A stretch of DNA of 64,000 nucleotides from an uncultured Winogradskyella sp. (GTDB lineage Bacteria; Bacteroidota; Bacteroidia; Flavobacteriales; Flavobacteriaceae): the NCBI RefSeq assembly GCF_913055905.1, contig NZ_CAJXLB010000007.1, one strand, 5' to 3'. Each line of letters starts with the position of its first letter. The first letter of the stretch is position 1. The position numbers and the translations under genes are program-made. Below, piece by piece: positions 1-14,098 of this stretch. A model generated the notes under the pieces. That model was given only the letters and a program-made list of their open reading frames with translations, was not told the DNA's origin and did not search any database.

Positions 1-267
1 GAACTTAGAAGGACTGATAAGACACTTGACGGATATGTAATTGACAGCTTGACATACCAGTACAATCGACATGAAATTCGACTTCTGAATGAGAACTCAG
101 CAAACTCTTTAATAGTGAAATTCGACATTTACATTGACGAAATTGAATCGAGCTTAATCATTGGATATTATGACTATGAAGTGAATTTTCAAGGCGAGTT
201 CATAGACGAATTCTTAGTCTTCCAAAATGACATGGAAAATAAAAAAACGCTTGCCAACAATGGCTAA
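1..267 (+). CDS. Hypothetical cassette protein, 5'-truncated by the window edge
   Basis: Frame is open from position 1 (ELRRTDKTLDG...) to TAA at 265-267, which lies inside the repeat (tail KKTLANNG*). Confidence 0.7.
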   Translation, partial: ELRRTDKTLDGYVIDSLTYQYNRHEIRLLNENSANSLIVKFDIYIDEIESSLIIGYYDYEVNFQGEFIDEFLVFQNDMENKKTLANNG

Positions 268-383
268 GAAAACATGCGGGCTAACAGAGTAAAATGAAAT
301 TTAGTACACCAAATAAAACTTGTCCCTCGGTTGACAAATACGTGTTCCAAAACCCGCACGTTTCTTAGCCGTGGCCGTTATGG
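252..383 (+). repeat. attC-like site 1
   Basis: TGCCAAC at 252-258; arms GGCTAAGAAAACATGCGGG (262-280) and CCCGCACGTTTCTTAGCC (353-370); GTTATGG at 377-383. Confidence 0.85.
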
Positions 384-408
384 GCAAGGCTAAAACGACC
401 GAAAAACA

Positions 409-1014
409 ATGAAACTTAAAAACATATTTACAGACAATAAGACAAAAGTTTTTGTGGTGACTAACCAAGACGAAGAAGATGAACTTAATTGGACTATTGA
501 ACCGACTGACTTTGACCTTTTGCCAGAAGAAGAGAATGTTTATTACGTAAAAGCATATCAAGTTTCTGCTGACGGCACTTACGATTGTTACCTTGGTATA
601 ATGACACCTGAAAGAATTGCTGAGACTGTTGTAAAGAAAGAACCAAGCGGACAAATCGTTGCAGAAAGTATATACGAACAAGAACAAACTATAATTCCAG
701 CAGTTGCTTCTGACTGTTTTGGTGACTATGAATTGTTTTACGCAAAAGAAAATCCTCAAATTGGAATTGACGTTTTAAAAGACGGACTAACAAAAGCGTC
801 AAACAAGAACATTGTTGCAGAAGACTTGGGATATGTTTTGAGGGACGAGAAAAGAATTGAAGAAGCAATTGACGCATTTAAAATTAGTGAGCAGACTGGA
901 CCTTCTTCAGAGTATGTTTTCCTTGAACTTTCAAGACTATATCGCGAAATTGGACAAAAAGAAAATGAACTGAAATACAAAGAAAAATTTAAGGTGAGTG
1001 GCGGAATTGAATAG
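409..1014 (+). CDS. Cassette protein with a C-terminal TPR-like helical region
   Basis: 201 aa; AEDLGYVLRDEKRIEEAIDAFKIS...YVFLELSRLYREIG pattern resembles a TPR. Confidence 0.7.
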   Translation: MKLKNIFTDNKTKVFVVTNQDEEDELNWTIEPTDFDLLPEEENVYYVKAYQVSADGTYDCYLGIMTPERIAETVVKKEPSGQIVAESIYEQEQTIIPAVASDCFGDYELFYAKENPQIGIDVLKDGLTKASNKNIVAEDLGYVLRDEKRIEEAIDAFKISEQTGPSSEYVFLELSRLYREIGQKENELKYKEKFKVSGGIE

Positions 1015-1027
1015 AAGAAAAAGCCCA

Positions 1028-1162
1028 GCCCATAACAAAGCATATAGCTTATGGCGGGTAAACGGTTATCAGCAAGGTTTTCGCTTCGTAGCCAGCTTTG
1101 GTTTCGGTGGACAGGAAAGTGCTTCGAAACCGCCACAAGCCATATGCAAACCGTTACCCAAC
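1028..1162 (+). repeat. attC-like site 2
   Basis: GCCCATAAC at 1028-1036; arms GCATATAGCTTATGGCGG (1040-1057) and CCGCCACAAGCCATATGC (1130-1147); GTTACCCAAC at 1153-1162. Confidence 0.88.
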
Positions 1163-1178
1163 ATTTGACCAAACAATA

Positions 1179-1625
1179 ATGAGAAGGAAAAGACTACAAC
1201 ATAATGCTGACATTTTTTGCGATATGTTCGCTGGTTGGAAAATAGTGAACGATATGAAATCTTTGGTTGAATTGGAAAGTGGAATCATTGAATTTGATTT
1301 CCTGAATAGAACTCAAAAACTCAACAATGCGGAATCGAAAACTGACTTTAATATGTTTTATGAAATTTCGGAATGGTTTGCGGACGATTTAAAAAAGCAC
1401 AATATCGAAACGGAATTTATTAAAGAGGCAAAAGTAAAGGCGGAATTTAAAGTTGAATTTACTGCTGGAAAAAAGAAGTCTCGAACGAAAGGAATTACTG
1501 AACTATATCTGAATTTAAACTCTTGGATTTTAACAGACGAAAAAGAATATAAATCGGAAAAAGAAGAAACTCAAGAATTTCACCATATTGAACGGAAAGA
1601 AAAAACGTTGGGTAACAATGTATAA
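1179..1625 (+). CDS. Hypothetical cassette protein (148 aa)
   Basis: ATG at 1179 is preferred because the ORF-track start at 1098 lies inside site 2; the stop lies inside site 3 (tail KTLGNNV*). Confidence 0.75.
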   Translation: MRRKRLQHNADIFCDMFAGWKIVNDMKSLVELESGIIEFDFLNRTQKLNNAESKTDFNMFYEISEWFADDLKKHNIETEFIKEAKVKAEFKVEFTAGKKKSRTKGITELYLNLNSWILTDEKEYKSEKEETQEFHHIERKEKTLGNNV

Positions 1626-1745
1626 CCGCAATTACGGCGGATTCGACTACGTCCGAATCCACTCGGAATTGCTAACGTCTGTGTCAAACCGAAAATAATC
1701 GCTAATTTAACCCGCAACTGACGGTTATACTAGACCGTTACCTGC
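1607..1745 (+). repeat. attC-like site 3 (family A)
   Basis: GTTGGGTAAC...GTTACCTGC; 67 nt (1613-1679) are identical to 2271-2337. Confidence 0.9.
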
Positions 1746-1767
1746 AAGTTAAACCGACATTCTGCAA

Positions 1768-2259
1768 ATGAAAATCATCTTTCAAGTCATATTATTTCTA
1801 TTCTCATCTAGCTTCTGCTTTGCTCAAGAAATGACAAAGCGTGAATTAAAAAATATGATAAAGGAATCGAAATTGGAATATCGGAAAAATGGATATTCTT
1901 ATTTTTCTAAAATACTGACAAATAATAAAGACAGTCTTTTTTTCAAAGCTGACCGAATTGAAATTTACTCAAGTAATGCCATAACATCTGAAAAGGGAAT
2001 CTGCCGAACGGTTGAATTAAAATTCTTGAAGAACAAAAAAGTGAATTTTATTGATTGCCAAACTTGCACTGAACCATCTTCGTGTTACGTTACAACTGAT
2101 AAAAATGTTTACAAATACTATATTCAAGAAATTGAAAACGAATTATTTATTCTTTTCAAAAACAAATACTACGAAATGAATTTTAAAGTAATTTCTGCAA
2201 AAGAAAATGAACTGAATCACAGAAAATATCGTGAAATAAAATTAGAGCGAATTGAATAA
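1768..2259 (+). CDS. Secreted hypothetical cassette protein
   Basis: 163 aa; signal peptide-like N-terminus (MKIIFQVILFLFSSSFCFA-QE). Confidence 0.75.
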   Translation: MKIIFQVILFLFSSSFCFAQEMTKRELKNMIKESKLEYRKNGYSYFSKILTNNKDSLFFKADRIEIYSSNAITSEKGICRTVELKFLKNKKVNFIDCQTCTEPSSCYVTTDKNVYKYYIQEIENELFILFKNKYYEMNFKVISAKENELNHRKYREIKLERIE

Positions 2260-2265
2260 AAACCA

Positions 2266-2403
2266 GCAGGTAACAATGTATAACCGCAATTACGGCGGAT
2301 TCGACTACGTCCGAATCCACTCGGAATTGCTAACGTCAGTGCTAAACCGAAAAACATTAACTTTAATCCCGTAACTGACGGTTATACTAGACCGTTAGCA
2401 CCA
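2266..2403 (+). repeat. attC-like site 4 (family A)
   Basis: GCAGGTAAC; arms GTATAACCGCAATTACGG (2278-2295) and CCGTAACTGACGGTTATAC (2369-2387); GTTAGCACCA at 2394-2403. Confidence 0.9.
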
Positions 2404-2405
2404 AT

Positions 2406-3164
2406 TTGAAAAAACTAAAAACCTTGAAAAAAATATCATTACTGCTCATAGCTATTACATTTCTATATTCCTGTAAAAAGTTGGAAAAAGAAACAACCAG
2501 AAATCAATCTGAAACAAAAATTGAGAAAAAATTATATGCAGAAACTGAAAGTAAAATAAAAAAATATAGAGAAGATTCTCAAAAGTATTGGGATAAAAAT
2601 GATAGCGAAAATGCTCTGAAATATGGCGACTCAATTAAGTCAATTATTCTAAACAGTTACATCAACGATTATGAATTTAAAACTGTTGAGAACACTATCT
2701 ACAATACGATTGAAAGAAAAAAGCCTCTTTTCTTACAAGTTACGGCATCTTGGTGTGCACCTTGTAAATTTGAAGTTCCTGCATTAAATAAAATAGTTGA
2801 GAAATATAGTGACAGGGTAGATTTTGTTCTTCTATTTTGGGACACTCAATCGGATTTAGAAAAGCTTGCGCCTGATTATAATAAGAATATATATCTAATT
2901 CCTTCTCAAGAACAACAATCTGAAGCGACCACAATTGATATTTCTGGATTTAGACACATTATGGGTTTTCCAACAAATTATTTGATTACAAGAGAAAATA
3001 AAATAATTAACTTTTCCCAAGGAGCAATGATTCCGACAACCTACACAGACCAAAACGGAAAAGAAATTACAATTACGAAAGAAGTTGCCGACCAAAAGAA
3101 TTATGAAAGACTTGAAAAAGAAATCAAAGAATTAATTGAAAAAACTGGTGCTAACAATGTATAA
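2406..3164 (+). CDS. Lipoprotein with a TlpA/thioredoxin-like domain (cassette)
   Basis: Lipobox-like LYS-C; WCAPC redox motif; TTG start at 2406 or 2424; stop lies inside site 5 (tail KTGANNV*). Confidence 0.8.
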   Translation: MKKLKTLKKISLLLIAITFLYSCKKLEKETTRNQSETKIEKKLYAETESKIKKYREDSQKYWDKNDSENALKYGDSIKSIILNSYINDYEFKTVENTIYNTIERKKPLFLQVTASWCAPCKFEVPALNKIVEKYSDRVDFVLLFWDTQSDLEKLAPDYNKNIYLIPSQEQQSEATTIDISGFRHIMGFPTNYLITRENKIINFSQGAMIPTTYTDQNGKEITITKEVADQKNYERLEKEIKELIEKTGANNV

Positions 3165-3307
3165 CCGCAATTACGGTGGATTCGACTACGTCCGAATCCA
3201 CCCCGCCTTGCCAGGCGTGGCAGGTCGGAATTGCTAACGTCAGTTCTAAACCGAAAATTAACGCATATTAACCCGTAACTGACGGTTATACGAGACCGTT
3301 GGCTGTA
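3146..3307 (+). repeat. attC-like site 5 (family A, with a 23-nt hairpin insertion)
   Basis: TGGTGCTAAC...GTTGGCTGTA; near-identical to sites 3 and 4 apart from the extra 3202-3224. Confidence 0.9.
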
Positions 3308-3309
3308 AT

Positions 3310-3837
3310 ATGAAAAAAATCGCGATTATAATATTAACATTGAATTTCAACCTTGGATTTGGACAAGTTGAAATTCCTTTTTTTGAACAAATCGCTTTTG
3401 ATTTTTACAAGGACAGTCTATTGACAAAATTCCCTGTAGAAAAACGAATAAAAATTCCAAAATATACGACTGACTTTCACTTCTCGTCTTATAAATTTCA
3501 AGTTAACGAATGTCTGACTGGAGAATTATTGACAGAGGGAAAAGAATTGGAAATTTTCGGGATTTATGCTCTAGAACAAATGGATTTTGATTCGCCAACT
3601 CACAAAATGAATTATGAAAACTTGGATAAAAAACAGTTTCGGATTAAAAAATCAAGTAGCAATCTGAATTTAAGAATTTCCCAACCCTATCATAAAAAAG
3701 ATTACTTTGAGAATTTTTACGTAATTATATCGGAAAATTATAAAAGAAAAAATATCACATACTATTTATTAATAGACAAAAACGGAAAGATAAAAAATTG
3801 GTGCAGAAAAGAATCGGAAATGATAATAATCCATTAG
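3310..3837 (+). CDS. Secreted hypothetical cassette protein
   Basis: 175 aa; signal peptide-like N-terminus ending GFG-QV. Confidence 0.75.
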   Translation: MKKIAIIILTLNFNLGFGQVEIPFFEQIAFDFYKDSLLTKFPVEKRIKIPKYTTDFHFSSYKFQVNECLTGELLTEGKELEIFGIYALEQMDFDSPTHKMNYENLDKKQFRIKKSSSNLNLRISQPYHKKDYFENFYVIISENYKRKNITYYLLIDKNGKIKNWCRKESEMIIIH

Positions 3838-3853
3838 TGATTAAAAAAAATAC

Positions 3854-4041
3854 TACAGCCAACACCGGCTATAGTTCATTGCTACTCGCCTACTTCAATT
3901 TAAAATTTTTCTTACTTTTAATACTTAAACATAAAGAGGAATGATTTCGTTACGCTGTTTGCTTCGCACGTGTGGAAAAAACTAGCAACGCTTCGCAAAC
4001 CAACAACCGCAACGAAACCATAGCCCAAACCGTTAGCAAAC
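3854..4041 (+). repeat. attC-like site 6 (family B)
   Basis: TACAGCCAAC; arms GGCTATAGTTCATTGC (3867-3882) and GCAACGAAACCATAGCC (4009-4025); GTTAGCAAAC at 4032-4041. Confidence 0.88.
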
Positions 4042-4046
4042 ATATC

Positions 4047-4661
4047 ATGCAAAACCCAAAGCTACTTTACCTTATTCTAATAATAATTCTAAGCTCTTGT
4101 TCTAAAGAAAAAAAGTCTGTGCCAACTAAAGAATTCAAAACAAAACAAATTGACACTACCAAACTTTACCATAGAACAAAAGTTATCTATGAAAAGGATA
4201 GTCTGAACTATAAGGAAATTGAAGTCTACGTTTCAAAAGAAAATGACACCATTGTGAATCAATGGAAAAAAATTGAAAACGGAAAGATAGACAGTTCTCA
4301 AAGCAAGTTTTATAACCTAAAACTGATAGGTAAGAAAAGTGATTCTATTTTGACTGGACAAATAAGTTTTTATTCACCTGGCGACAGTATTCCAGATTCA
4401 AAAATATATACGAGATTCGTGACTTTCACTTTTCTTCAACCAGAAAAAGATTCTTTAGTTTTTAAAGAAATTAAGTCCGACAAAAATATAATTGACTTTA
4501 AATATCGTATAATTGACAGCTTAGGTTTTATGGGATTTATATCTGACTTAAGAGCCACCAAAATTGATAGCTTACCCGAACAATCTCTTGTAAATAGAAA
4601 CTACTTTGCTGTGGATACGGATATTTGGACTAACAACACATTTGTAGAAATTGTAAAATAA
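4047..4661 (+). CDS. Hypothetical lipoprotein (cassette)
   Basis: ATG at 4047 (MQNPKLLYLILIIILSS-C); the ORF-track start at 3972 lies inside site 6. Confidence 0.75.
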   Translation: MQNPKLLYLILIIILSSCSKEKKSVPTKEFKTKQIDTTKLYHRTKVIYEKDSLNYKEIEVYVSKENDTIVNQWKKIENGKIDSSQSKFYNLKLIGKKSDSILTGQISFYSPGDSIPDSKIYTRFVTFTFLQPEKDSLVFKEIKSDKNIIDFKYRIIDSLGFMGFISDLRATKIDSLPEQSLVNRNYFAVDTDIWTNNTFVEIVK

Positions 4662-4667
4662 AAATAC

Positions 4668-4853
4668 GTTTGCTAACACCGGCTATAGTTCATTGCTACT
4701 CTCCTGCTTCAATTTAAAATATTTCCTACATTTAGTACCTAAACATATAAGCAATTATTTCGTTTTGCTATTTGCTTCGCACGTGAGGAGAAAACTAGCA
4801 ACGCTTCGCAAACCGCAAACCGCAACGTAATCATACGCAAACAGTTGGTAACA
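4668..4853 (+). repeat. attC-like site 7 (family B)
   Basis: GTTTGCTAACACCGGCTATAGTTCATTGCTACTC shares its arm with site 6; right core GTTGGTAACA at 4844-4853. Confidence 0.85.
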
Positions 4854-4902
4854 ATACCTATGGCACGCATCCACCGCACTACGTACTTGTGTGTCTGCTT
4901 AA

Positions 4903-5059
4903 TGTTCCTAACAGGCACACAGTACGACTGTATATTCGTTAACGTGCCATCGGCACTATACCCAACTATGGATATAACGAATATACCTCTAATGGCTACT
5001 ATTACTAATTACAGCAAGCTGTCAACGTAACTCGCCATATCCGTGTGCCTGTTACCTGC
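4903..5059 (+). repeat. attC-like site 8, atypical, closing a gene-less unit
   Basis: Perfect 12-bp IR TAACAGGCACAC (4909-4920) / GTGTGCCTGTTA (5043-5054); inner perfect 12-bp IR 4930-4941 / 4975-4986; right core GTTACCTGC at 5051-5059. Confidence 0.6.
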
Positions 5060-5142
5060 AATATCCCAAGAGAGTATGGCATCGTTATTAAAGTAATAAC
5101 AAAACTAATGACTAATATATTTGGTGACATCAAAAATCTCTT

Positions 5143-5168
5143 TAAATTTGCAACCGAATGAACGTTCA
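5143..5168 (+). promoter_or_regulatory. Bacteroidota -7 box plus candidate TetR operator
   Basis: TAAATTTG at 5143-5150 fits TAnnTTTG (a second copy TATATTTG at 5116-5123); perfect palindrome TGAACGTTCA at 5159-5168, 6 bp before the tetR ATG. Confidence 0.6.
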
Positions 5169-5174
5169 CTTTGT

Positions 5175-5744
5175 ATGACGAAAAAAGAAAAAATATTAAA
5201 AATAGCGCTGGAATTAATTGTAAATCAAGGAATCCAAGAAACACCAATGTCGCAAATCTCAAAAGTTTCAGGTGTAGCTATGGGGACAATATATCATCAT
5301 TTTAAAAGCAAAAACGAAATAGTAAACGCCATTTATATCTACCTGAAAAAAGAAATGGGAAATGCGCTTTTAGAAGAAAAAGATAGTTCTAAAGATTACA
5401 AAGCACTCTTCTACCAATTTTGGAACAACCTATTTGAGTTTTACCAAAAGAACGAAATGGCCTTTAAGTTTTTACAAAGATTTGTGCAATCGCCACTTAT
5501 TTCTGATGAAACAAAAGTTGAAGGACTTGAACATTATAAACCAATCATTTCATTTTTTGAAGAGGGATTACGAAACAACATTCTAAAACCTATTGACATT
5601 GTACTATTAACAGAAACAATTCACGGAAATATAGTTTCATTAGTGCAAATTCACTTCCAGCAAACAATAGTAGTAAATAAAAAAATCATTGACCAAGCTA
5701 TTGATATGTCTTGGAGCAGTGTTGCAAACAAAAATTATGAATAA
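5175..5744 (+). CDS. TetR/AcrR family transcriptional regulator
   Basis: N-terminal HTH KEKILKIALELIVNQGIQETPMSQISKVSGVAMGTIYHHFKSK; ATG at 5175. Confidence 0.92.
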   Translation: MTKKEKILKIALELIVNQGIQETPMSQISKVSGVAMGTIYHHFKSKNEIVNAIYIYLKKEMGNALLEEKDSSKDYKALFYQFWNNLFEFYQKNEMAFKFLQRFVQSPLISDETKVEGLEHYKPIISFFEEGLRNNILKPIDIVLLTETIHGNIVSLVQIHFQQTIVVNKKIIDQAIDMSWSSVANKNYE

Positions 5745-6774
5745 AACAGTATTAGTAACAGGGGGAACGGGCTATATCGGTTCTTGGGTAACCAAAATGC
5801 TCTTAGAAAAAGGATATACGGTAAGATTAGCCGTGAGAGACAATAAGAACACAGCAAAGTACCAACACCTTATCGAGTTAGAGAATAGTTCTGATGGTAA
5901 TTTGGAATTCTGGAATGCTAATTTACTGTCAGAAGGTGATTATGACGAAATGGCGGAAGGCTGTTCTTCTATAATCCATATGGCATCCCCTTTCACACTG
6001 CGATTTAAAGATGCTCAAAAAGAGTTGATTGACCCTGCCCTGAAGGGAACAAGAAATGTGCTGAATGCTGCTACAAAATCATCTTCAGTTAAGAAAGTAG
6101 TTTTAACCTCGAGTGTTGCTGCTGTTCACGGAGATAATATCGACATGAAAGAGAAAGGCTTATCTGAATTTACTGAAGCGCATTTTAATGATTCAAGCAG
6201 TGCATCTCACCAACCGTATTCCTTTTCTAAAGTAATCGCAGAAAAAGAGGCTTGGAAAATCAGCGAAAGTCAAGATCAATGGAAATTAGTCGTAATTAAC
6301 CCATCTTTTGTTATGGGACCCTCTTTAACCCAATCTTCTAACTCTGAAAGTTTGAATTTTATGAAAGAAATGCTTTCTGGAAAATACTATTTGGGAGCAC
6401 CAAACTTAATGTTTGGGTTTGTAGATGTTAGAGATGTTGCCAAAGCACACCTATTAGCCTTAGAAGACGAAACGGCCGAAGGACGACACATATTGGCAGA
6501 AAGAACAACGTCAGTTTTTGATTTTTCCCGATTAATCAAAAAAAGTTACGGCAATAAATACAAATTACCATTGATGCAATCACCAAAAATAATGCTGTAT
6601 TTAGTAGGCTGGATGTTTGGTTTAGGAACCAAATTTATACGCCGGAATGTGGGCTATGATATAAAGTTAAATACGTCAAAGAGTAAGGAAAAATTAGGTT
6701 TAACTTACACCAATTTGCAGAATACGATAGAAGATATGGTGTCGCAAATGCAGGAAAATAAAATCATATCCTAG
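5737..6774 (+). CDS. NAD-dependent epimerase/dehydratase (extended SDR, dihydroflavonol reductase-like)
   Basis: VLVTGGTGYIG, HMASP, TSSVAAV and YSFSK motifs; ATG at 5737 overlaps the tetR stop. Confidence 0.9.
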   Translation: MNKTVLVTGGTGYIGSWVTKMLLEKGYTVRLAVRDNKNTAKYQHLIELENSSDGNLEFWNANLLSEGDYDEMAEGCSSIIHMASPFTLRFKDAQKELIDPALKGTRNVLNAATKSSSVKKVVLTSSVAAVHGDNIDMKEKGLSEFTEAHFNDSSSASHQPYSFSKVIAEKEAWKISESQDQWKLVVINPSFVMGPSLTQSSNSESLNFMKEMLSGKYYLGAPNLMFGFVDVRDVAKAHLLALEDETAEGRHILAERTTSVFDFSRLIKKSYGNKYKLPLMQSPKIMLYLVGWMFGLGTKFIRRNVGYDIKLNTSKSKEKLGLTYTNLQNTIEDMVSQMQENKIIS

Positions 6775-6835
6775 CACAAAAACGTATCTCGGAAGTAGAT
6801 TATAATCAATTATAAACTGAACAAATTTATACCAA

Positions 6836-8245
6836 ATGAAAAAAACATTACTTACATCAATCCTATTTACATTAATTGTTTATTGCGGTTTTGGACAAAC
6901 AACCATTCCTGACAACACAAACATTAGTGGTAGCTGGACTGTAGCTAATTCGCCCTATATCATTGAGGGTAGAGCCATAGTTCCAAATGGTCAAACGCTA
7001 ACCATCGAGCCTGGCGTAGAAATTAGACTTCAATCAAGTACATCACCAACGCCATCGTGGTTTGATTATGGCTCTGGGAATGTTGGAGTTATAAGAGTTC
7101 AGGGAGAGATAATTGCAAACGGAACTACTACAAACCCTATTCTATTTACAAGGAATAATACTGGTTTTTGGGGTACAATTTTAATAGATGAAAACGCAGC
7201 CAATACTTCCTCATTTTCAAATTGTATCATTGAATATGCAAAGGAAAGCAGAAATGTAACCGGAATCACTTCACCTGTCTCATTTAATGGTGGAATCAGT
7301 GTTTTTAATAGCACAGTTTCTATCAACCAAAATGAATTTAGAAACAACAACATCAATGGGTTGTATATAAGAGATGTGGCGAATTCTTTTGATTTCTCAA
7401 ATAATACTTTTTACGATAACGGCTCAAACGGAAGCGTAATCGAACAATCAACCGTAAACGCAATTAACAATACCTACTTTAACAATTCAATTAGCGCGAC
7501 AGGGCAAGTTTCGGCTATTCGCTCGACTAACTCAACCGTCTATCTCGTTGGTAATTTGATTTACAACAATGACGATTTTGGGATTTTTACTTCTGGAGGA
7601 GGGAATCATTATGTTGTAAACAATACTATTTTTGGCAACAGTCAAGGCGTAAGAGTAGAAACTGGGGCAAATACGTTTATACATAGTTCCATTATTCAGA
7701 ACAATACATTGAACTTTTCGACCAGCAATGTTGGCGGAGCTAATGTAGAAATGCAGTATAGTTTAACCAATGACGCTACGTTTCCTACGAATGTTACAAA
7801 TGTTTCAAGTAATTTGTTGAACTCAGATGCGCTATTTACCAATTCTGGAGCAAATGATTTCAGTTTACAAAGTACATCGCCTGCGATTGATGCAGGCAAT
7901 CCAAGTTCATCAGGTTTAAATATAACTGTAACAGATATTTTAGGAAACCCTAGAATAGATAATACAATTATTGATATTGGAGCCATAGAGTTTCAACAGG
8001 CCCTTAGTGTAAATAACATTAATGAATTAGCGGATTTAAATATTTACCCCAATCCAACAAAAGATTTTATTTATGTAACATCAAATGAATCGTTAACAAT
8101 TGAAGTTTTTTCAATTGACGGAAAATCAATTGGAAATTACAATGCAAAAATCATTGACTTGTCAAAAGTTAAAGCGGGCATTTATGTTCTGAAAGTTGAA
8201 GATTCAACTGGAAAAAGTATCATAAGAAAGATAGTAAAGAAATAG
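6836..8245 (+). CDS. T9SS-secreted parallel beta-helix protein with choice-of-anchor Q-like region
   Basis: Signal peptide; Asn-rich beta-helix repeats; FSLQSTSPAIDAG...DIGAIEFQ; type A CTD IYPNPTKD...KIVKK. Confidence 0.85.
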   Translation: MKKTLLTSILFTLIVYCGFGQTTIPDNTNISGSWTVANSPYIIEGRAIVPNGQTLTIEPGVEIRLQSSTSPTPSWFDYGSGNVGVIRVQGEIIANGTTTNPILFTRNNTGFWGTILIDENAANTSSFSNCIIEYAKESRNVTGITSPVSFNGGISVFNSTVSINQNEFRNNNINGLYIRDVANSFDFSNNTFYDNGSNGSVIEQSTVNAINNTYFNNSISATGQVSAIRSTNSTVYLVGNLIYNNDDFGIFTSGGGNHYVVNNTIFGNSQGVRVETGANTFIHSSIIQNNTLNFSTSNVGGANVEMQYSLTNDATFPTNVTNVSSNLLNSDALFTNSGANDFSLQSTSPAIDAGNPSSSGLNITVTDILGNPRIDNTIIDIGAIEFQQALSVNNINELADLNIYPNPTKDFIYVTSNESLTIEVFSIDGKSIGNYNAKIIDLSKVKAGIYVLKVEDSTGKSIIRKIVKK

Positions 8246-8251
8246 AAGCCA

Positions 8252-8273
8252 GCAGGTAACTATGGCAATAATT
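8252..8273 (+). repeat. Truncated attC-like site 9 (left end only)
   Basis: CCAGCAGGTAAC is identical to the site 4 left end; AACTATGGCAATAATT resembles a left arm (13/16 to 11150-11165); no right arm found. Confidence 0.6.
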
Positions 8274-8282
8274 ATGAGAACG

Positions 8283-10424
8283 ATGAGAAAATATCTATTT
8301 CTAGTAATACTAATATCCATTCTAGCTTGCAAAGAGGATAAAACATCTGATTCTGAATTAACAAATATTGACTATACTGAATTTGTCAATCCTTTTATTG
8401 GTACTGACGGAACAGGACACACGTTTCCAGGTCCAAGCAGGCCTTTTGCCATGGTGCAACCCGGACCAGACAATACCGACCAGGGTTGGGATTATACTAG
8501 TGGGTATCAACTCAAAGACTCTACCATCATAGGATTTTCCAATACCAGAGCGAGCGGAACAGGTATTAGTGAATTTGGAGATGTATTACTTTTCCCATTT
8601 ACAAAAGAATCAGATAGCCTTTCAGCCAAAAAAACAGACGAAACCGCTGACGTGGGTTACTACAAGGTAGATTTAAATAATGGTGTCCAGGCTGAACTCA
8701 CCTCAACAGACCGTGTTGGTTTTCACAGATATACTTACCCAAGCCAGAAAGCTAAATTATTGGTTAACCTACAACATGGTTTACGTTTTATTACAGACAG
8801 TTTGGTTTTGGATAGCGACATTACAATTGAAGCAGATAAAAAAACCATTTCCGGCTATTGCCATACCAGCAACTGGGTAGAGCGGAAGTATTTTTTTACC
8901 CTCACCTTCGACCAGACTTATGATTCCATCAGACAATTGCCTCTTGGACCGAAAGAAAACGCACCAAAAAGTATTTTAGATTTCACCCTTAAGAACAACA
9001 TTTTAAAAGCTAAAGTCGCTTTATCTTCTGTAAGCGTCGATGGCGCAAAAAAGAACCTTAACTCAGAACTCAACCACTGGGATTTTGAACAAGTGAGACA
9101 AGAAAGCAAAGAGGTTTGGAATACGTATTTGAGTAAAATTGATATTGAAGCAGAAGACAAGCAAAAAACCATTTTCTACACGTCTATGTACCATTTGTTT
9201 TTACAACCCAGCAATATAGCAGATGTGGATGGCAGGTACAGAGGTGCTGATGATCAAATTGCTACAGCTAAAAATGGAGAATACTACTCTACGCTTTCAC
9301 TTTGGGATACGTACCGAGCTGCGCATCCCTTGTATACTATTTTGGTACCGGAGCGTGTTGACGGCTTTGTAAATACATTTCTCGCCCATCATAAAGCACA
9401 AGGCTATTTACCCATCTGGACCGCCTGGGGACAGGAAAACCACTGTATGATTGGCAACCATTCCATACCAGTCATTGTGGATGCTTACAACAAAGGGTTT
9501 GATGGGTTTGACTACCATGAAGCCATGACGGCAATGGTAGAATCATCTACAGAAAATCACCTGAATTCAGATTGGGACCTTTATAACAAATACGGCTATT
9601 ACCCTTTTGATTATCTGGACAACGAAGCCGTTTCCAGAACGCTGGAAAGCGGATTTGACGATTATGCCATTTCCATTATGGCAAAAGATATGGGCATGGA
9701 TAGCATTGCCGGCGTATTTGCCAAAAGAGCAAAATATTATGAAAATTTATTTGACCCGGAAACGGGCTTAATGCGCGGTAAAGATTCCAAAGGACAGTTT
9801 AGAACGCCTTTTAATCCTCTGGATGCCACATCGCCGATGAATAATCCCGGAGATTACACCGAAGCAAATGCCTGGCAGTACACCTGGACGACGTCGCATT
9901 ATGATGTGGAAAATTACACAAAATTGCTCGGTGGCAAAGACCAATTCACAGAACAATTGAATACGTTCTTTTCTATTTCAGGTGATGGCGACAATAAGCA
10001 TTTGGGACAAGAAGGCTTAATAGGACAATATGCCCACGGCAATGAACCTAGCCATCACATTGCTTATTTATATGCCTACTCAAACACACCAGAAAGAGGA
10101 AATGAACTTATAACTGAAATTTACAACAAGTTCTACGATGAAACACCTGAAGGCATCACCGGAAATGATGACTGCGGACAGATGAGTGCCTGGTATATAT
10201 TCTCAACCTTAGGCTTTTATCCGGTAAATCCAGCAAATACAGAATATGTTTTAGGAATTCCGCAAGTAGAAAAAGCTACTATAAATTTGCAAAACGGCAA
10301 GACGTTTAAAATTAGAAAAACTAAACAGTTAGAAGATTTATCTATTCAACTGAATAATAAAGAAATTGAAAGGATTATTAAACACCAAGATGTTATAGGT
10401 GGAGGAACTTTAGAATTTAAATAA
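8283..10424 (+). CDS. GH92 family alpha-mannosidase, lipoprotein
   Basis: VNPFIGT, GHTFPG, SLWDTYR, YTEANAWQY, GQYAHGNEPSHH and GNDDCGQMSAWY motifs; lipobox ILA-C; ATG at 8283 preferred. Confidence 0.93.
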   Translation: MRKYLFLVILISILACKEDKTSDSELTNIDYTEFVNPFIGTDGTGHTFPGPSRPFAMVQPGPDNTDQGWDYTSGYQLKDSTIIGFSNTRASGTGISEFGDVLLFPFTKESDSLSAKKTDETADVGYYKVDLNNGVQAELTSTDRVGFHRYTYPSQKAKLLVNLQHGLRFITDSLVLDSDITIEADKKTISGYCHTSNWVERKYFFTLTFDQTYDSIRQLPLGPKENAPKSILDFTLKNNILKAKVALSSVSVDGAKKNLNSELNHWDFEQVRQESKEVWNTYLSKIDIEAEDKQKTIFYTSMYHLFLQPSNIADVDGRYRGADDQIATAKNGEYYSTLSLWDTYRAAHPLYTILVPERVDGFVNTFLAHHKAQGYLPIWTAWGQENHCMIGNHSIPVIVDAYNKGFDGFDYHEAMTAMVESSTENHLNSDWDLYNKYGYYPFDYLDNEAVSRTLESGFDDYAISIMAKDMGMDSIAGVFAKRAKYYENLFDPETGLMRGKDSKGQFRTPFNPLDATSPMNNPGDYTEANAWQYTWTTSHYDVENYTKLLGGKDQFTEQLNTFFSISGDGDNKHLGQEGLIGQYAHGNEPSHHIAYLYAYSNTPERGNELITEIYNKFYDETPEGITGNDDCGQMSAWYIFSTLGFYPVNPANTEYVLGIPQVEKATINLQNGKTFKIRKTKQLEDLSIQLNNKEIERIIKHQDVIGGGTLEFK

Positions 10425-10428
10425 CTAA

Positions 10429-10561
10429 TGTCAACAGAAGCTATACCTAATACGGGCGAAAGTCCTAATATGAAGGCAATTAGATTAATCAAAATTTTCG
10501 GTAAACGGACAGTGAAGTGTATTGAAATCTCGCACTACGCATAGATGAGACCGTTGTAAAC
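10429..10561 (+). repeat. Degenerate attC-like site 10
   Basis: TGTCAAC at 10429-10435; arms CTATACCTAATACGGG and CTCGCACTACGCATAG; ACC-GTTGTAAAC at 10553-10561. Confidence 0.7.
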
Positions 10562-10565
10562 AATT

Positions 10566-11141
10566 ATGAAAAACTTAATTCTAATAATTATTTCATTAAC
10601 ATTCTTCAACTCTTTTAGCCAAGAGTCAAAAGATTTCATAAAATCAGAGGACTATTATTTAACGGAAATTGACCCACTAACAATGAAAAAATATTGGGAA
10701 AATTTTCCAACTGAAAATGTATTGAAGCCCATTCCTATTTATTTAAAAGATAAAAACGGAAAAACACTTTATGAAATTAAAATATCAGAGTTGGAATTTT
10801 ATAGCGGAACTTCAATTGAGGTTTTGGATATTGATAATTTGAAGGACATTGAACAAATAATACATTTGGAATCCGGTTACGATGCTTGTTGCACTAGTTA
10901 TTATTCGACTTATTTGCTCAAAGCAAAAGATGGAAAATTAATTAAACTCCCCGAAATTGATAATTTGCATTGTGACGGACCAGAACCAAGATTTGAATAT
11001 AGATTCCCAAATCAAAAATTCGGACATGAAAACCAAATCTTAATGACTAAATCATTCCTAAACGACGATTACAAAGTTGAAAAGGTTGAAATACAAAAAA
11101 CATATTCTTGGAACGGAAAAACATTTGAATTAAAAAAATAA
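10566..11141 (+). CDS. Secreted hypothetical cassette protein
   Basis: 191 aa; signal peptide ending SFS-QE; start 13 bp after the GTT. Confidence 0.75.
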   Translation: MKNLILIIISLTFFNSFSQESKDFIKSEDYYLTEIDPLTMKKYWENFPTENVLKPIPIYLKDKNGKTLYEIKISELEFYSGTSIEVLDIDNLKDIEQIIHLESGYDACCTSYYSTYLLKAKDGKLIKLPEIDNLHCDGPEPRFEYRFPNQKFGHENQILMTKSFLNDDYKVEKVEIQKTYSWNGKTFELKK

Positions 11142-11142
11142 C

Positions 11143-11360
11143 TATTCGCAACAATAGCTATAATTGTTAGCACCAGTTCGCACTGCGTGCTCGTGTCATT
11201 GCTACTCCCCTGCTTCAATTTAAAATTTTTCCTACATTTAGCACCTAAACATAAAAAGGAAGGATTTCGTTTCGCTGTTTGCTTCGCACGTGTGGAAAAA
11301 TCTAGCAACGCTTTGCAAATCGCAAACCGCATAGTAATCATTGACTAGACCGCTGTGCCT
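11143..11360 (+). repeat. Degenerate attC-like site 11 (family B; core GTT mutated to GCT)
   Basis: Body aligns with sites 6 and 7 (CATTGCTACTC...GCTTCGCACGTGTGGAAAAA...CTAGCAACGCT); 31-nt insertion at 11166-11196; right core GCTGTGCCT at 11352-11360. Confidence 0.75.
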
Positions 11361-11364
11361 CATT

Positions 11365-11399
11365 AAAAAACAGAGTCCTTACAAAACGTAAGAACTCTG
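11365..11399 (-). terminator. Intrinsic terminator for the minus-strand gene 11411-11824
   Basis: Stem CAGAGTCCTTAC / GTAAGAACTCTG (11/12) next to A6 at 11365-11370, which is a U-tract on the minus strand. Confidence 0.7.
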
Positions 11400-11410
11400 C
11401 TTGAAAAAAA

Positions 11411-11824
11411 TTACTCTTTAGGCAGAAGCCTCCCACTAACAGGTTCAAGGTCGTACATTACAAAAGTTTCTATTATACTTTCCATATCCTCGTTTTCACC
11501 GTGGTCTTCTTTTCCTTCTTTGGTTTCAAGGAAATTATAGAGGGTTTCTTTTTTATCGTAAGTTGCCCAAACAACAACTGAATTTCTTCCCTCATCGACA
11601 CTAACCTGATAAGCTAGAAGACCATCAGATTTTTTGTCCATTTTCAAAGTCGGAGCTTTTGCAATCCTTACTAAATCATCAAGTTTACCAGGTTTTGCAG
11701 TTGATACTGACATAAAGGTATACGTTGGGCTTTTCATCGTTTTTTTCATTTTTTGATTATTTTTTTGCTTACAAGTGAATGTCAATATTAGTATTGATAA
11801 TAAAACTATTTTATTCAATTCCAT
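11411..11824 (-). CDS. Lipoprotein with an ABM-like (dimeric alpha-beta barrel) domain
   Basis: Lipobox-like LTFT-C; TFMSVSTAKPGKLDDL...YQVSVDEGRNSVVVWATY pattern. Confidence 0.6.
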   Translation of the reverse strand: MELNKIVLLSILILTFTCKQKNNQKMKKTMKSPTYTFMSVSTAKPGKLDDLVRIAKAPTLKMDKKSDGLLAYQVSVDEGRNSVVVWATYDKKETLYNFLETKEGKEDHGENEDMESIIETFVMYDLEPVSGRLLPKE

Positions 11825-11856
11825 TGTTATTAATTTATTTTATTATGGTTTTGATG

Positions 11857-11904
11857 CAAATATAAAATATTATTTCAAATTCATAATATTATTTTGTAAT
11901 TTTG
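11857..11904. promoter_or_regulatory. Divergent -7 promoter boxes
   Basis: CAAATATA at 11857-11864 (TATATTTG on the minus strand) and TAATTTTG at 11897-11904 (plus strand). Confidence 0.5.
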
Positions 11905-11929
11905 TTCATTATAATACTAAATTGACTTA

Positions 11930-12481
11930 ATGAAGCTTACATTACTTAAAGATATAATTGAACTAATAGAGGACTTTCAAACTTCAAACGACTCTGAAAA
12001 AATAGAAGATTTCACAATCTGGCTCAACAACAAATTGTTTTCGTTAAATCATAGTGAAGAGCACTCAACTCACGATGAACTATTGATTGCTTTTAAAATA
12101 ATGTTGCTAAATAAAGAACTGAAAAAACAGACAAAAAACGTTTTATCGAAATCAAATGTGTCGTCCATTGATGAATACAGCTTTTTATTACACTTGAATT
12201 ACCAAGAAAGCTTCAGAAAAATGGAGTTAGTGGATTTGCACAATCTTGAAGCACCAACGGGAATAGAAATTATAAAAAGACTTCTAAAAAATAGGCTGAT
12301 TGACGAATTTCCAGATAAAGAAGACAAAAGGGCAAAAAGAATAAAAATAACAAAAAAAGGAATTGCGGAGTTGGAATCAATTAAACCAAGAATTGATTCA
12401 ACTTTTATGAAATTGACAGAACCTCTTAACCTGAATGAAAAAATTCAAATTAGTGGCCTTCTAGATAAACTGATACATTAA
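11930..12481 (+). CDS. MarR family winged-helix regulator
   Basis: PTGIEIIKRLLKNRLIDEFPDKEDKRAKRIKITKKG wing motif. Confidence 0.85.
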   Translation: MKLTLLKDIIELIEDFQTSNDSEKIEDFTIWLNNKLFSLNHSEEHSTHDELLIAFKIMLLNKELKKQTKNVLSKSNVSSIDEYSFLLHLNYQESFRKMELVDLHNLEAPTGIEIIKRLLKNRLIDEFPDKEDKRAKRIKITKKGIAELESIKPRIDSTFMKLTEPLNLNEKIQISGLLDKLIH

Positions 12482-12490
12482 GAAATAACA

Positions 12491-12499
12491 AGGCACAAC
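12491..12499 (+). repeat. Remnant left core of the last cassette site
   Basis: AGGCACAAC 10 bp after the MarR stop; its reverse complement GTTGTGCCT matches 11352-11360 at 8/9. Confidence 0.55.
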
Positions 12500-12709: not shown

Positions 12710-14098
12710 TTATTTCCCGATGCAAAAATTAGCAAATATATTCCCCAAGAGGTCATCGGTCGTAATCTCGCCGGTAATCTCTCCAAAGTGATGAAGAGCC
12801 TGTCGTATATCTATCGCCAACAAATCGCCTGAAAGTCCAGTTTCCAATCCTTCCTTAACCTTTTGGATTTCTTCAAAGGCCTTAATCAGAGCATCATAGT
12901 GCCTAGTATTGGTCACAATAGTGTCATTGTTCCGTAAGGCGCCAGTATTGATTAAATTTAAAAGAGTCTCGGTAAGTTGTTCTATACCAAACCCGGTCTT
13001 AGCAGAGAGCAGCAGGACATCAGGAATGGTTGTATTAATCTCAGCAAGCTGCATATCGTCTAATACATCTATCTTATTGGCAATAACCAATAAAGGCTTT
13101 TGAGGATATTTGTTCCTAATTTTTTCAATCTCAATTCTTACGCTTTCCAAATCAGCAATTTGTTTGGCAGCATCAAATAGGAATATGGTGACTTGCGACT
13201 GCTCGATTTTTTCAAACGTCTTTTTTATGCCTATGGACTCAACAACATCTTCGGTCTCTCGTATACCTGCCGTATCTATAAAGCGAAATCCTATTCCTCC
13301 TATAGAAATCTCGTCTTCAATGGTATCACGTGTAGTACCAGCAATTTCCGATACAATAGCACGCTCATCATTGAGCAAGGCATTGAGCAACGTAGATTTT
13401 CCCACATTAGGCTCACCCACAATAGCGACAGGAATGCCGTTCTTTATCACATTGCCCACAGCAAACGAATCAATAAGACGCTTAAGCACAAAACTAATGC
13501 GGTCAATGAGTTCCTTAAATTGGGTTCTGTCTGCAAATTCTACATCCTCTTCAGCAAAATCAAGTTCCAACTCAATGAGGGAAGCAAAATTCATAAGCTC
13601 TTCCCTAAGCCTAGAGATTTCAGAAGAAAAGCCACCACGCATCTGTTGCATGGCAATTTGATGTGCCGCCTCGTTATCACTAGAAATTAAGTCGGCAACA
13701 GCTTCTGCTTGGCTCAAATCCAATTTTCCATTTAAAAAAGCTCGTAGCGTAAATTCTCCAGGCGATGCCATCCTGCAACCCTTTCGTAAAAAAAGCTGTA
13801 TGATTTCTTGCTGTATATAGGTTGAACCATGGCACGATATTTCCACAACATCTTCACCTGTGTAAGATTTCGGATTTTTAAATAGCGATACCAATACCTC
13901 ATCCAAGGTTTTCATACCGTCTACTATATGCCCCAAATGTATGGTATGCGTAGCTTGCTGTTTTAAATCTTTTCCACTAACCGATTTAAAGTTTTCGGAC
14001 ACAAGGGCAATAGCAGCCGGGCCGGACAGTCTAATAACTGCTATGGCGCCGCTTCCTGATGGTGTCGCTAAGGCTATTATGGTATCTTGATGAGACAT
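12710..14098 (-). CDS. mnmE: tRNA modification GTPase MnmE (TrmE)
   Basis: DTIIALATPSG, GEPNVGKSTL, GTTRD, DTAGIR and C-terminal FANFCIGK. Confidence 0.98.
   Translation of the reverse strand: MSHQDTIIALATPSGSGAIAVIRLSGPAAIALVSENFKSVSGKDLKQQATHTIHLGHIVDGMKTLDEVLVSLFKNPKSYTGEDVVEISCHGSTYIQQEIIQLFLRKGCRMASPGEFTLRAFLNGKLDLSQAEAVADLISSDNEAAHQIAMQQMRGGFSSEISRLREELMNFASLIELELDFAEEDVEFADRTQFKELIDRISFVLKRLIDSFAVGNVIKNGIPVAIVGEPNVGKSTLLNALLNDERAIVSEIAGTTRDTIEDEISIGGIGFRFIDTAGIRETEDVVESIGIKKTFEKIEQSQVTIFLFDAAKQIADLESVRIEIEKIRNKYPQKPLLVIANKIDVLDDMQLAEINTTIPDVLLLSAKTGFGIEQLTETLLNLINTGALRNNDTIVTNTRHYDALIKAFEEIQKVKEGLETGLSGDLLAIDIRQALHHFGEITGEITTDDLLGNIFANFCIGK

Follow-up and report, generated by a model that had tools for sequence, protein, structure and literature searches.

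Site architecture, covariation, strand bias, R-box complementarity and strain differences agree in suggesting that the 64,000-nt stretch of DNA analyzed here (the window) carries an integron-type cassette array on the chromosome of a marine, Winogradskyella-like flavobacterium, as an earlier note on this DNA had proposed. We consider this reading highly probable, and as far as the DNA shows the array is a CALIN (cluster of attC sites lacking an integrase). Cassette arrays have hardly been reported so far in the host's bacterial group. Each unit would pair a putatively promoterless ORF with an attC site downstream of it, and the bottom strand of this site is predicted to fold into a hairpin of paired R boxes (AAC/GTT plus 6–7 nt) and L boxes. 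Cleavage at the AAC/GTT triplet by a tyrosine recombinase would allow cassettes to be excised, inserted and reordered as units. The gene for this enzyme may lie at another place in the genome, or the enzyme may come from flavobacterial (pro)phages, in which the same site family adjoins a short Xer/IntI-like integrase.

The window is 100% identical to the ENA contig ERZ508520 NODE_89, which carries the array 6072 bp beyond the window's left edge. This extension holds four more full attC sites and one partial site (at least five extra sites), giving a total of 14 sites on the contig, 13 full and one cut by the contig end; the left end itself falls within a repeated attC that is a copy of site b4. 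In the window, nine attC-like sites lie between 252 and 11358, eight of them intact and one degenerate, and all array cassette ORFs are on the plus strand. The right flank (11411–12481) encodes a 183-aa winged-helix (MarR-like) regulator and, on the minus strand, a 137-aa ORF without a Pfam family, and contains no covariance-model matches; the first core gene beyond it is mnmE (12710–14098, minus strand). Two related Winogradskyella genomes lack the array at the 3′ flank of mnmE, and the array therefore appears to be accessory.

The window sites are 130–213 nt long, and each is given here by its plus-strand limits followed by the positions of the A of AAC and the G of GTT. Site a1 (252–383; 256/377) has the R″ box TGCCAAC and the R′ box GTTATGG, scores 99 bits and has the minus strand as its folding strand. 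It is followed by a2 (1030–1159; 1034/1153; R′ GTTACCC; 86.8 bits), a3 (1610–1743; 1614/1737; R′ GTTACCT; 115.9 bits), a4 (2268–2400; 2272/2394; R′ GTTAGCA; 120.3 bits) and a5 (3149–3304; 3153/3298; R′ GTTGGCT; 107.5 bits), the last being of the a3/a4 type with a 23-nt insert. Site a6 (3857–4038; 3861/4032; R′ GTTAGCA; 27.5 bits) represents a long, 182-nt subtype, with folding energies of −26.2 kcal/mol for the bottom strand and −14.5 kcal/mol for the top. Site a7 (4671–4850; 4675/4844; R′ GTTGGTA after CA), a direct-repeat copy of a6 (61%), belongs to the same long subtype, has an eroded L box and was missed by the covariance model of the window sites. Site a8 (10429–10559; 10433/10553; R′ GTTGTAA, R″ TGTCAAC) scores 96 bits. 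The array's right end is formed by the degenerate terminal site a9 (11146–11358; 11150/11352), which is of the a6/a7 type, is a direct-repeat copy of a6 (85%) and has GCT in place of GTT. Both triplets are thus present in eight of the nine sites, a9 being the exception, and GTT follows CC in the seven intact sites other than a7, where it follows CA. Within the genome the sites form near-identical subfamilies (a3/a4/a5; a6/a7/a9; b0/b4). The right cores listed in the earlier note match these sites, apart from a second GTTACCT, which does not exist, and the core of a9, which reads GCT.

The "about 12 units" of the same note correspond to the number of ORFs. Simple cassettes number seven: six lie between two sites that are both in the window, and one (10556–11358) is closed by a9. 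The remaining array content is the 3′ portion of a further cassette and a 5.7-kb block (4846–10555). The former is the 3′ part of an ORF (116 aa; 1–267) whose cassette starts left of the window, at L001 5962. The simple cassettes encode proteins of 201 aa (409–1014) and 148 aa (1179–1625) with no Pfam family, a 163-aa protein with a signal-peptide-like N-terminus (1768–2259), a 246-aa thioredoxin/AhpC-like protein with weak Pfam hits (2424–3164), a 175-aa protein (3310–3837), a lipoprotein-like protein of about 204 aa (4047–4661) and, in the final cassette, a 191-aa protein (10566–11141). The distance from GTT to the next start codon in the array is 9–29 nt. Between its bounding sites the 5.7-kb block (4851–10428) has no internal attC sites and encodes, on the plus strand, a TetR regulator (5121–5744), an SDR/epimerase (5689–6774), a T9SS beta-helix protein (6836–8245) and a GH92 protein (8262–10424). 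Given that the R boxes of a7 and a8 at its ends are mismatched, the block is best read as fused cassettes, that is, several units without attC. Fused to the GH92 start, as a scar of a lost attC, is an orphan R″ box, GCAGGTAAC (8241–8264, plus strand), the partner of GTTACCTGC. In sequencing run X2, GH92 lies directly after an a2-type attC (joint 1155→8273), and the GTTGCCA start of this GH92 cassette pairs with the a8 R″ box TGTCAAC with one mismatch.

The predicted fold is supported by covariation. RNAalifold on the nine sites yields 22 pairs, 12 with compensatory changes. In an alignment of 111 related sites, 93.8% of cells are paired, compared with 76.6% in shuffles, and sliding the partners by 1–3 columns drops pairing to 31.7–49.7%. 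Among these sites 17 of the 22 pairs have changed on both sides, the L-box helix is 98.1% paired with nine of its ten pairs covarying, and AAC and GTT show little or no variation. Conserved G·T wobbles occur on the strand that does not carry the ORFs (in 108 and 96 of the 111 sites). They identify the non-coding (bottom) strand as the one that folds and, since they become C·A mismatches on the mRNA strand, would make the hairpin poorer in mRNA. The bottom strand is also the more stable one in seven of the nine window sites; it is the better-folding strand, as in attC sites. The sites have R and L boxes and an unpaired central spacer that is asymmetric (about 6 nt versus 3 nt); the bottom strand of a1, for example, reads AAC-GGCCAC-GGCTAAG...CTTAGCC-ATT-GTT. 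An extra bottom-strand T lies in the 3′ arm of a1 and in the 5′ arm of a3–a5, and the family consensus has a small internal loop instead of a single bulged T.

Hairpins between genes could also be intergenic repeats (REP/MITE-like elements, terminators or mRNA stabilizers), with gene content shifting through homologous recombination between them in a PeSL-like manner. The long, near-identical subfamilies could support homologous recombination, and the finding that attC type is unlinked to the ORF across genomes fits such exchange as well. The conserved wobbles on the non-coding strand already argue against this explanation, and the R boxes and the strain comparison do so further. In 10 of 13 consecutive site pairs, the variable 6–7 nt that follow GTT match, as reverse complement, the bases preceding the next AAC. 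Such complementarity across ORFs is expected if cassettes are cut at the triplet (G|TT) and not from repeat spread or homologous exchange; as far as sequence can tell, crossover would thus be at G|TT, as in attC cassettes. Strains were compared using assembled Logan contigs. Runs X2–X4 retain 4.0–12.5 kb of the window at 95–99% identity and lack the cassettes at 1–1030, 1737–2170 and 2605–3038. Contigs diverge directly after GTT (1156, 1158) or directly before AAC (1034, 1618, 2276), and cassette order also differs among strains with breakpoints at AAC/GTT, so that both content and order vary. Breakpoints fall exactly at these triplets even where the flanking repeat bodies differ. Furthermore, homology of a 234-aa cassette among 25 genomes spans the upstream GTT to the downstream AAC, and the contexts differ. 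Based on these observations we regard repeat-mediated exchange as very improbable and return to an integron-type array.

A covariance model built from the window sites (R1) recovers them with E-values of 1e-18 to 5e-27, a6 being weak at 5e-4. Its matches in the window are confined to 252–10559, with none in the 12.5–64 kb region; a pattern of this kind lies far outside what chance would produce. Across Flavobacteriaceae, a search that the earlier note had suggested, the model adds over 100 sites (E≤0.001) from 25 loci, and in every case the site lies on the opposite strand to the ORFs. The array sites have no Rfam match, and IntegronFinder 2.0 lists 0/0/0 for six complete genomes of Aquimarina and Algibacter, which may or may not bear arrays. 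We do not retain the earlier description of a non-canonical site family of its own. The conserved feature of attC is the AAC/GTT triplet, and GTTRRRY is the consensus for mobile-integron sites (Cury 2016, PMC4889954); thus, only the triplets define attC. Model R1 also matches sites of the Polaribacter phage P12002L, and the bottom strand of a1 shares the layout of P12002L attC1 (xxxxAAC, 6 nt, L box ... L box, ATT, GTTxxxx). P12002L attC1 is detected by IntegronFinder and was recombined into attI1 by IntI1 (Qi et al. 2023, PMC9892861), which prefers the bottom strand (PMC9892861); that a site of this layout is an IntI1 substrate is a further point against simple hairpin repeats. Unlike the window array, P12002L has mostly short sites (about 55–130 nt) and ORFs on the attC bottom strand. 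Chromosomal Flavobacteriaceae arrays are not described in that study (PMC9892861), and for Bacteroidetes the IntegronFinder 2.0 paper lists only In0 elements from earlier work plus one complete integron, in Salinibacter.

As the earlier note had observed, no integrase is in view. No tyrosine recombinase was found in the 64-kb window, nor in the 6 kb to its left, where the note had suggested looking for one. In the 25 related genome loci (about 435 kb), tblastn with an IntI1 query found no recombinase. The visible left ends of two Aquimarina arrays adjoin ordinary genes and no integrase, and none of 120 metagenome loci (614 kb) has an integrase at an array start in the canonical layout. Neither an attI site nor a Pc promoter was identified. 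A complete integron has adjacent intI, attI and Pc, and this combination is absent from the contig, which ends inside the array. With 14 sites and no recombinase within reach, we provisionally class the array as a CALIN. Alternatively, a complete sedentary chromosomal integron could be present, with a divergent integrase and attI just past the contig break, to the left and on the minus strand. The array's orphaned look would then be an artifact of short-read assembly, which breaks in repeated attC sites, and the contig does end within an attC that repeats b4. All 13 IMG/VR loci that carry an integrase have the array upstream of the integrase's 5′ end, with the sense strand of the integrase gene serving as attC bottom strand. 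By this canonical geometry an adjacent integrase is predicted on the left, one of the two places that the note had named (the other being elsewhere in the genome), and on the minus strand; the degenerate right end (a9) is likewise expected of a distal end. Nevertheless, we consider a complete integron unlikely given the Aquimarina left ends and the lack of a recombinase in the related genome loci and at array starts in the metagenome loci. Moreover, wherever we found an integrase next to an array, that array was of the phage type, its ORFs inverted.

It is in phages that a recombinase accompanies such arrays, whereas none was found at the chromosomal arrays examined. The same attC family adjoins an integrase of 265–278 aa in the 13 IMG/VR loci as well as in the Freya phages of Polaribacter. 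The region upstream of the integrase measures 17, 859, 1761, 4057 and 4959 nt in Freya_1, 2, 5, 8 and 10, respectively; these isolates are otherwise identical in sequence and differ by cassette blocks, with each breakpoint directly after ...AAC and the insertion point about 45 nt upstream of the integrase start codon. A prophage of Aequorivita echinoideorum (Flavobacteriaceae) carries a homologous integrase with attC upstream, and the closest cultured homologs are in phages of Polaribacter and Cellulophaga. One may therefore ask whether chromosomal arrays lack a dedicated integrase and are served by short Xer/IntI-like integrases of phages or prophages that act in trans or use the arrays as landing pads. 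All of these phage findings speak for such a network. On the other side, ORFs face opposite ways relative to attC in phage arrays (148 of 165 sites) and in chromosomal ones (70 of 79 and 186 of 213 sites), which argues against free cassette exchange, and neither prophage nor integrase was seen adjoining the chromosomal arrays examined. We therefore regard service by phages as possible but doubtful, and our preferred reading continues to be a CALIN whose enzyme may lie in the genome or in phages.

The phage-array recombinases resemble IntI (TIGR02249; VchIntIA, PDB 2a3v) in being simple tyrosine recombinases of the Xer/IntI group, and their genes share with intI their position and orientation relative to attC. 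Unlike IntI, they are only 265–278 aa long, and none was found beside a chromosomal array. They score 121–171 bits against TIGR02249 (cutoff 265), in two stretches. Their best family is NF040815 (XerA_Arch; 170–195 bits versus 220), and the best match among structures, judged by sequence, is archaeal XerA (4a8e). Alignment to IntI4 (2a3v) falls in two pieces, with 36 residues opposite 84, so that the IntI-specific insertion is missing. By their primary structure these enzymes thus have neither the additional domain that IntI carries inside its catalytic domain nor a score above the TIGR02249 cutoff, and this short Xer/IntI-like integrase is the one truly unusual element. Passages in PMC4889954 and PMC8138268 that cite Messier and Roy 2001 and MacDonald 2006 describe the insertion as necessary for integron recombination.

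Among known systems, the window array differs from sedentary chromosomal integrons and CALINs in its Flavobacteriaceae host, its long sites (130–213 nt), the asymmetric spacer, the unfixed position of the bulged base and several fused units without attC. PeSL shuffling in the hyperplastic regions of T4-type phages also involves small ORFs between repeated structured intergenic elements and variable gene content, and some loci related to the window array are large T4-like phage genomes. Exchange in PeSL modules has been proposed to be homologous. Unlike in PeSL, breakpoints here coincide with a 3-nt core, phages carry an adjacent tyrosine recombinase and R boxes are complementary cassette by cassette. 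As in Vibrio VCR arrays and CALINs, the ORFs are co-oriented and putatively promoterless, with an imperfect palindrome bearing AAC/GTT after each, and, as in a CALIN, the window array has no nearby integrase. Some cassette genes are of defense type, for example, an MmeI-like restriction-modification unit, as in integron arrays. Additionally, R-box complementarity across cassettes, the homogenization of sites into subfamilies within a genome, the predominance of cassettes of no known function and strain-variable content are all features that the window array shares with chromosomal integron arrays and CALINs.

In its architecture, strand bias, cassette signature and variation between strains, the array at the left end of the window works like an integron cassette array. 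Window positions 1-11358 hold co-oriented plus-strand ORFs with imperfect inverted repeats between them, a layout that the earlier note had described and that is confirmed with small corrections. The repeats are real, but nine sites are present in place of the roughly 12 units proposed. Delimited by their outer triplets, they are 130-213 nt long, and the A of AAC and the G of GTT lie at 256 and 377 (site a1), 1034 and 1153 (a2), 1614 and 1737 (a3), 2272 and 2394 (a4), 3153 and 3298 (a5), 3861 and 4032 (a6), 4675 and 4844 (a7), and 10433 and 10553 (a8). The last site, a9 (A of AAC at 11150), is degenerate, GCT (G at 11352) replacing GTT. Apart from this site and a second GTTACCT that is absent from the sequence, the list of right cores stands. 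The claim that the sites are non-canonical does not, since GTTRRRY is no defining feature of attC and the conserved positions are the AAC and GTT triplets (PMC4889954). On the top strand a site reads xxxxAAC, about 3 nt, an L'' box of 8-10 nt, a variable centre, the L' box, about 6 nt usually ending in ACC, and GTTxxxx, and the following ORF starts 9-29 nt after GTT. An ENA metagenome contig (ERZ508520 NODE_89) is 100% identical to the window, its position 6073 being window position 1, and the array runs on there for 6 kb to the left with four additional complete sites. Because the left end of this contig falls within a fifth attC site that repeats the b4 site of the same extension, we attribute it to an assembly break. 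Another locus (L003), considered as a carrier of other cassettes, has the cassette order of the window and differs in gene calls alone.

A covariance model, R1, was built from the bottom strands of nine sites, that is, the strands opposite to the ORFs; a plain scanner for AAC...GTT with L boxes was too noisy, giving 54 matches across the entire window. R1 scores the window sites at 87-120 bits (a6, 27.5 bits) and has no match in the other 52 kb, and Rfam holds no family matching these sites. In an alignment of 111 sites from the window and related loci, which was fitted to R1 and is hence biased towards the structure, the 22 modelled pairs hold standard pairs in 93.8% of their cells, against 76.6% in shuffles and 32-50% after the partners were shifted by 1-3 columns; within the L-box helix the value is 98.1%, and 9 of its 10 pairs have both-side changes. 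A nine-site MAFFT alignment made independently of R1 already contains 12 compensated pairs. At two pairs, G·T wobbles occur on the strand opposite to the ORFs (108/111 and 96/111 sites) and would become C·A mismatches on the mRNA strand, and DNA folding energies favor the bottom strand in seven of the nine sites. Wobbles and folding bias together speak against these being terminators or mRNA elements; the strand bias agrees with integron recombination, in which use of the bottom strand is the rule. The bulged base has no uniform place (3' arm in a1, 5' arm in a3-a5). Use of the sites in inverted orientation was considered, as a3-a5 have their extra base on the other arm, and was rejected, since the wobble bias and the strand assignment in phage P12002L both fit the canonical orientation.

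A further signature is found across the cassettes. For 10 of 13 consecutive site pairs on the contig, the 6-7 nt that follow GTT return, exactly reverse-complemented, just before the next AAC, as in GTTATGGGC, then GCCCATAAC. Such complementarity is what crossover at G/TT would produce, an excised cassette keeping both halves of its own R box (R'', with AAC, and R', with GTT), and it is the outcome of neither repeat spread nor homologous exchange. The three site pairs lacking the match enclose a 3.6-kb MmeI-like type IIG restriction-modification unit (positions 1752-5316 of L001, the source contig with its leftward extension), a 5.7-kb block at window 4851-10428 encoding a TetR protein, an SDR, a T9SS beta-helix protein and GH92, and the last, degenerate site. 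Within this block, at 8241-8264, an orphan R'' box (GCAGGTAAC) is joined directly to the GH92 start and may be read as the scar of a lost attC. In sequencing run X2 the GH92 gene instead stands right after an intact attC, of a2 type (joint 1155->8273), and together the two arrangements suggest that when an attC is lost, cassettes merge into larger fixed blocks. The a8 R'' box (TGTCAAC) is complementary, with one mismatch, to the GTTGCCA start of this X2-type GH92 cassette. Large defense-type units sit in arrays as oversized "cassettes" both at L001 1752-5316 and at L008 3811-7652, where a C5 methylase and a HATPase protein are encoded between unmatched R boxes. Some attC sites are immediately preceded by a conserved element, about 110 nt long, that contains GCCAACGCT in two or three copies together with the motif AAAGAGTATGTCTT and could carry accessory binding sites. 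Its four places, one of them the left edge of an Aquimarina array, are L001 5085-5190, after the restriction-modification unit left of the window, L008 8995-9090, after a DNA-methylase module, L006 3694-3790 and L024 9732-9825.

Comparison of strains and species points to mobility of these units. Contigs from other metagenomes (Logan, runs X2-X4) keep window 4.0-12.5 kb at 95-99% identity and lack several cassettes, and divergence begins exactly after GTT or exactly before AAC. Cassette content and arrangement, which the earlier note had proposed to compare between strains, vary with breakpoints at the triplets; these being assembled contigs and not reads, they make alternative arrangements visible and yield no rates. 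A 234-aa cassette from the left of the contig has relatives at 59-90% identity in 25 species, with hosts in Pontimicrobium, Aquimarina, Winogradskyella, Algibacter, Bizionia, Gangjinia, Mariniflexile, Lacinutrix, Gelidibacter, Dokdonia, Psychroserpens and others; nucleotide homology extends from the upstream GTT to the downstream AAC, and the neighborhoods differ. Applied to Flavobacteriaceae loci, also a proposed check, the covariance model places the same site family in 25 species of more than 10 genera. About half of the loci have multi-site arrays, the densest with about 28 sites per 20 kb, and the sites are always on the strand facing away from the ORFs. Two closed genomes have such arrays, Algibacter sp. 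R77976 (CP138989) at around 3.57-3.59 Mb and Mariniflexile sp. AS56 (CP151839) at around 1.96-1.98 Mb. A single pattern scan gave 120 metagenome contigs and 119 "viral" contigs, the majority of which contain the family. We consider it probable that the mechanism is site-specific recombination at the AAC and GTT of folded bottom strands, and the proposal of an integron-type array held up in the attC tests that gave a clear outcome. Other mobile elements occur in such arrays: an IS110-family transposase lies on the minus strand inside an Aquaticitalea array (L014 1287-2342), and two identical IS3 copies (L021 665-1459 and 17600-18394) flank about 16 kb of a Mariniflexile array. Elements of the IS1111-attC kind insert in attC.

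The array is accessory DNA: in the closest complete genome and in W. sediminis, synteny with the window holds on one side of mnmE, and the other side, where the window has its array, has none. MnmE itself (window 12710-14098, minus strand) shares 90% identity with its Winogradskyella aurantia counterpart and 85-90% with those of many other Winogradskyella. No tRNA gene was found near the array. At the counterpart place in W. sediminis (LT629774; L290 11486-21386) the mnmE 3' flank is occupied by an integrative element that encodes a primase, a Fic protein and an Arm-DNA-binding tyrosine integrase and also carries an MmeI-like gene, and the flank has the appearance of a hot spot where foreign DNA enters. 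Elsewhere in the window, and unrelated to the array, is a tandem pair of polyphosphate kinase 2 (PPK2) paralogs (41169-42856).

The earlier note had placed a recombinase to the left of the window or elsewhere in the genome. The array does continue for 6 kb to the left, but no tyrosine recombinase was found in those 6 kb. The window likewise yielded none, by tblastn with IntI1 and by Pfam on the flanking genes and all suitably sized ORFs, and neither did 25 genome loci totaling 435 kb, by tblastn with IntI1; the same IntI1 query later detected the phage integrases, which confirms its sensitivity. Two Aquimarina arrays have left ends that are in view, with none there, and the metagenome scan gave no chromosomal array start carrying an integrase. 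As far as the available DNA extends, the array is no complete integron and so fits the definition of a CALIN, a cluster of attC sites lacking an integrase. Minus-strand ORFs near arrays proved to encode AraC, hydrolases, and IS3 and IS110 transposases, and a 322-aa ORF at the right of L021 resembles a Fic-type protein by a motif in its translation. A 425-aa tyrosine integrase, judged by eye to be of Bacteroidetes type, was rejected as an array platform, as it adjoins one site and not an array (L255 5299-6739; 42 bits, 33 nt downstream of the ORF end).

An integrase does accompany the same site family in phages. Scanning IMG/VR with an attC-derived pattern gave 119 loci, most with several R1 matches, and in 13 a tyrosine recombinase of 265-278 aa adjoins the array. 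All 13 place the array upstream of the integrase 5' end, with the attC bottom strand as the integrase sense strand. This is the canonical intI/attC arrangement, and for the window it predicts that an integrase would lie leftward, on the minus strand. Given the searches of chromosomal array ends, we think it rather improbable that such an adjacent and so far unseen recombinase serves the array. The short phage integrase scores 121-171 bits, in two stretches, on the IntI family model TIGR02249 (cutoff 265); its best family, XerA_Arch, is likewise below cutoff. Compared with VchIntIA (2a3v), it has 36 residues opposite 84 of IntI4 and therefore lacks the IntI-specific insertion; it is no canonical IntI. 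That insertion is thought essential for integron integrases; Smyshlyaev et al. describe it as "not fully conserved" in an integron-like recombinase subgroup and make no tie to arrays. The family is large (7752 homologs at E<1e-30, usually named XerD) and occurs in phage genomes, including large T4-like phages, and in an Aequorivita prophage.

The nearest cultured homologs, at 37-40% identity, are integrases of Polaribacter phages Freya and Leef and Cellulophaga phage Ingeline. The Freya isolates (L155-L158, L286-L288) are identical except between the last conserved gene and the integrase, a distance of 17 nt in Freya_1, 859 nt in Freya_2, 1761 nt in Freya_5, 4057 nt in Freya_8 (blocks 1-859 and 1762-4959) and 4959 nt in Freya_10. 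The variable blocks consist of small ORFs, R1 matches fall in this part only, and every breakpoint immediately follows ...TTGTTnnnAAC, at a distance of about 45 nt before the integrase start. Freya has an attI-like site (TTGTTTACAAC/ACCCCTATAACAACAATAAG). Such block differences at an AAC core are integron-like behavior. The description of Freya treats the integrase solely as a marker of temperate life style and does not mention block variation (PMC8776804). In Polaribacter phage P12002L, a CALIN was detected by IntegronFinder, and IntI1 recombines its attC sites with a preference for the bottom strand (Qi et al. 2023, PMC9892861). R1 matches these sites, and the bottom strand of P12002L attC1 has the same layout as a1.

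These observations bear on whether phages supply the recombinase for the chromosomal array, which we regard as possible but doubtful. In our own pattern-based census, ORFs lie on the attC bottom strand, in the same direction as the integrase, at 148 of 165 sites in viral loci (IMG/VR L030-L148), whereas top-strand ORFs, the arrangement of classical integrons, are found at 70 of 79 sites in chromosomal arrays (Flavobacteriaceae genomes L005-L029) and 186 of 213 in metagenome contigs (L166-L285). This opposite orientation argues against free exchange between the phage and chromosomal pools. Otherwise, the recombinase would be encoded elsewhere in the genome or no longer be active. We tentatively put forward, as an idea with less than even chances, a phage-centered integron in which a short Xer/XerA-like recombinase lacking the insertion acts on one attC family common to phages and their marine Flavobacteriaceae hosts. 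Phages (Freya-type siphoviruses and large T4-like phages) would bear a platform of integrase, attI-like site and inverted-ORF cassettes, and the long integrase-less arrays of host chromosomes would be recombined in trans. Should the short phage integrase prove to be the enzyme at work, the accepted need for the IntI-specific domain would be up for revision, and cassette traffic between phage and host would be directly testable in culture with Polaribacter and phage Freya.

Marine flavobacteria are key degraders of algal polysaccharides, and Proteobacteria predominate in integron surveys. The occurrence of the site family in 25 species and most of the contigs given by the scan implies that marine flavobacteria would possess a large, mostly unannotated cassette pool, whose members in this array and contig include a GH92 mannosidase, a T9SS-secreted protein and a restriction-modification unit. 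Neither chromosomal integron arrays in Flavobacteriaceae nor cassette variation among Freya phages turned up in our literature searches. Within Bacteroidetes, the record in the IntegronFinder 2.0 paper consists of In0 elements (an integrase without cassettes) from earlier work and one complete integron, in Salinibacter, and IntegronFinder 2.0 gives 0/0/0 for six Aquimarina and Algibacter genomes, strains that may or may not carry arrays. What is new here is the host group and the scale, and the phage-centered arrangement, if true, would represent a second kind of integron, independently organized and with phages at its center.
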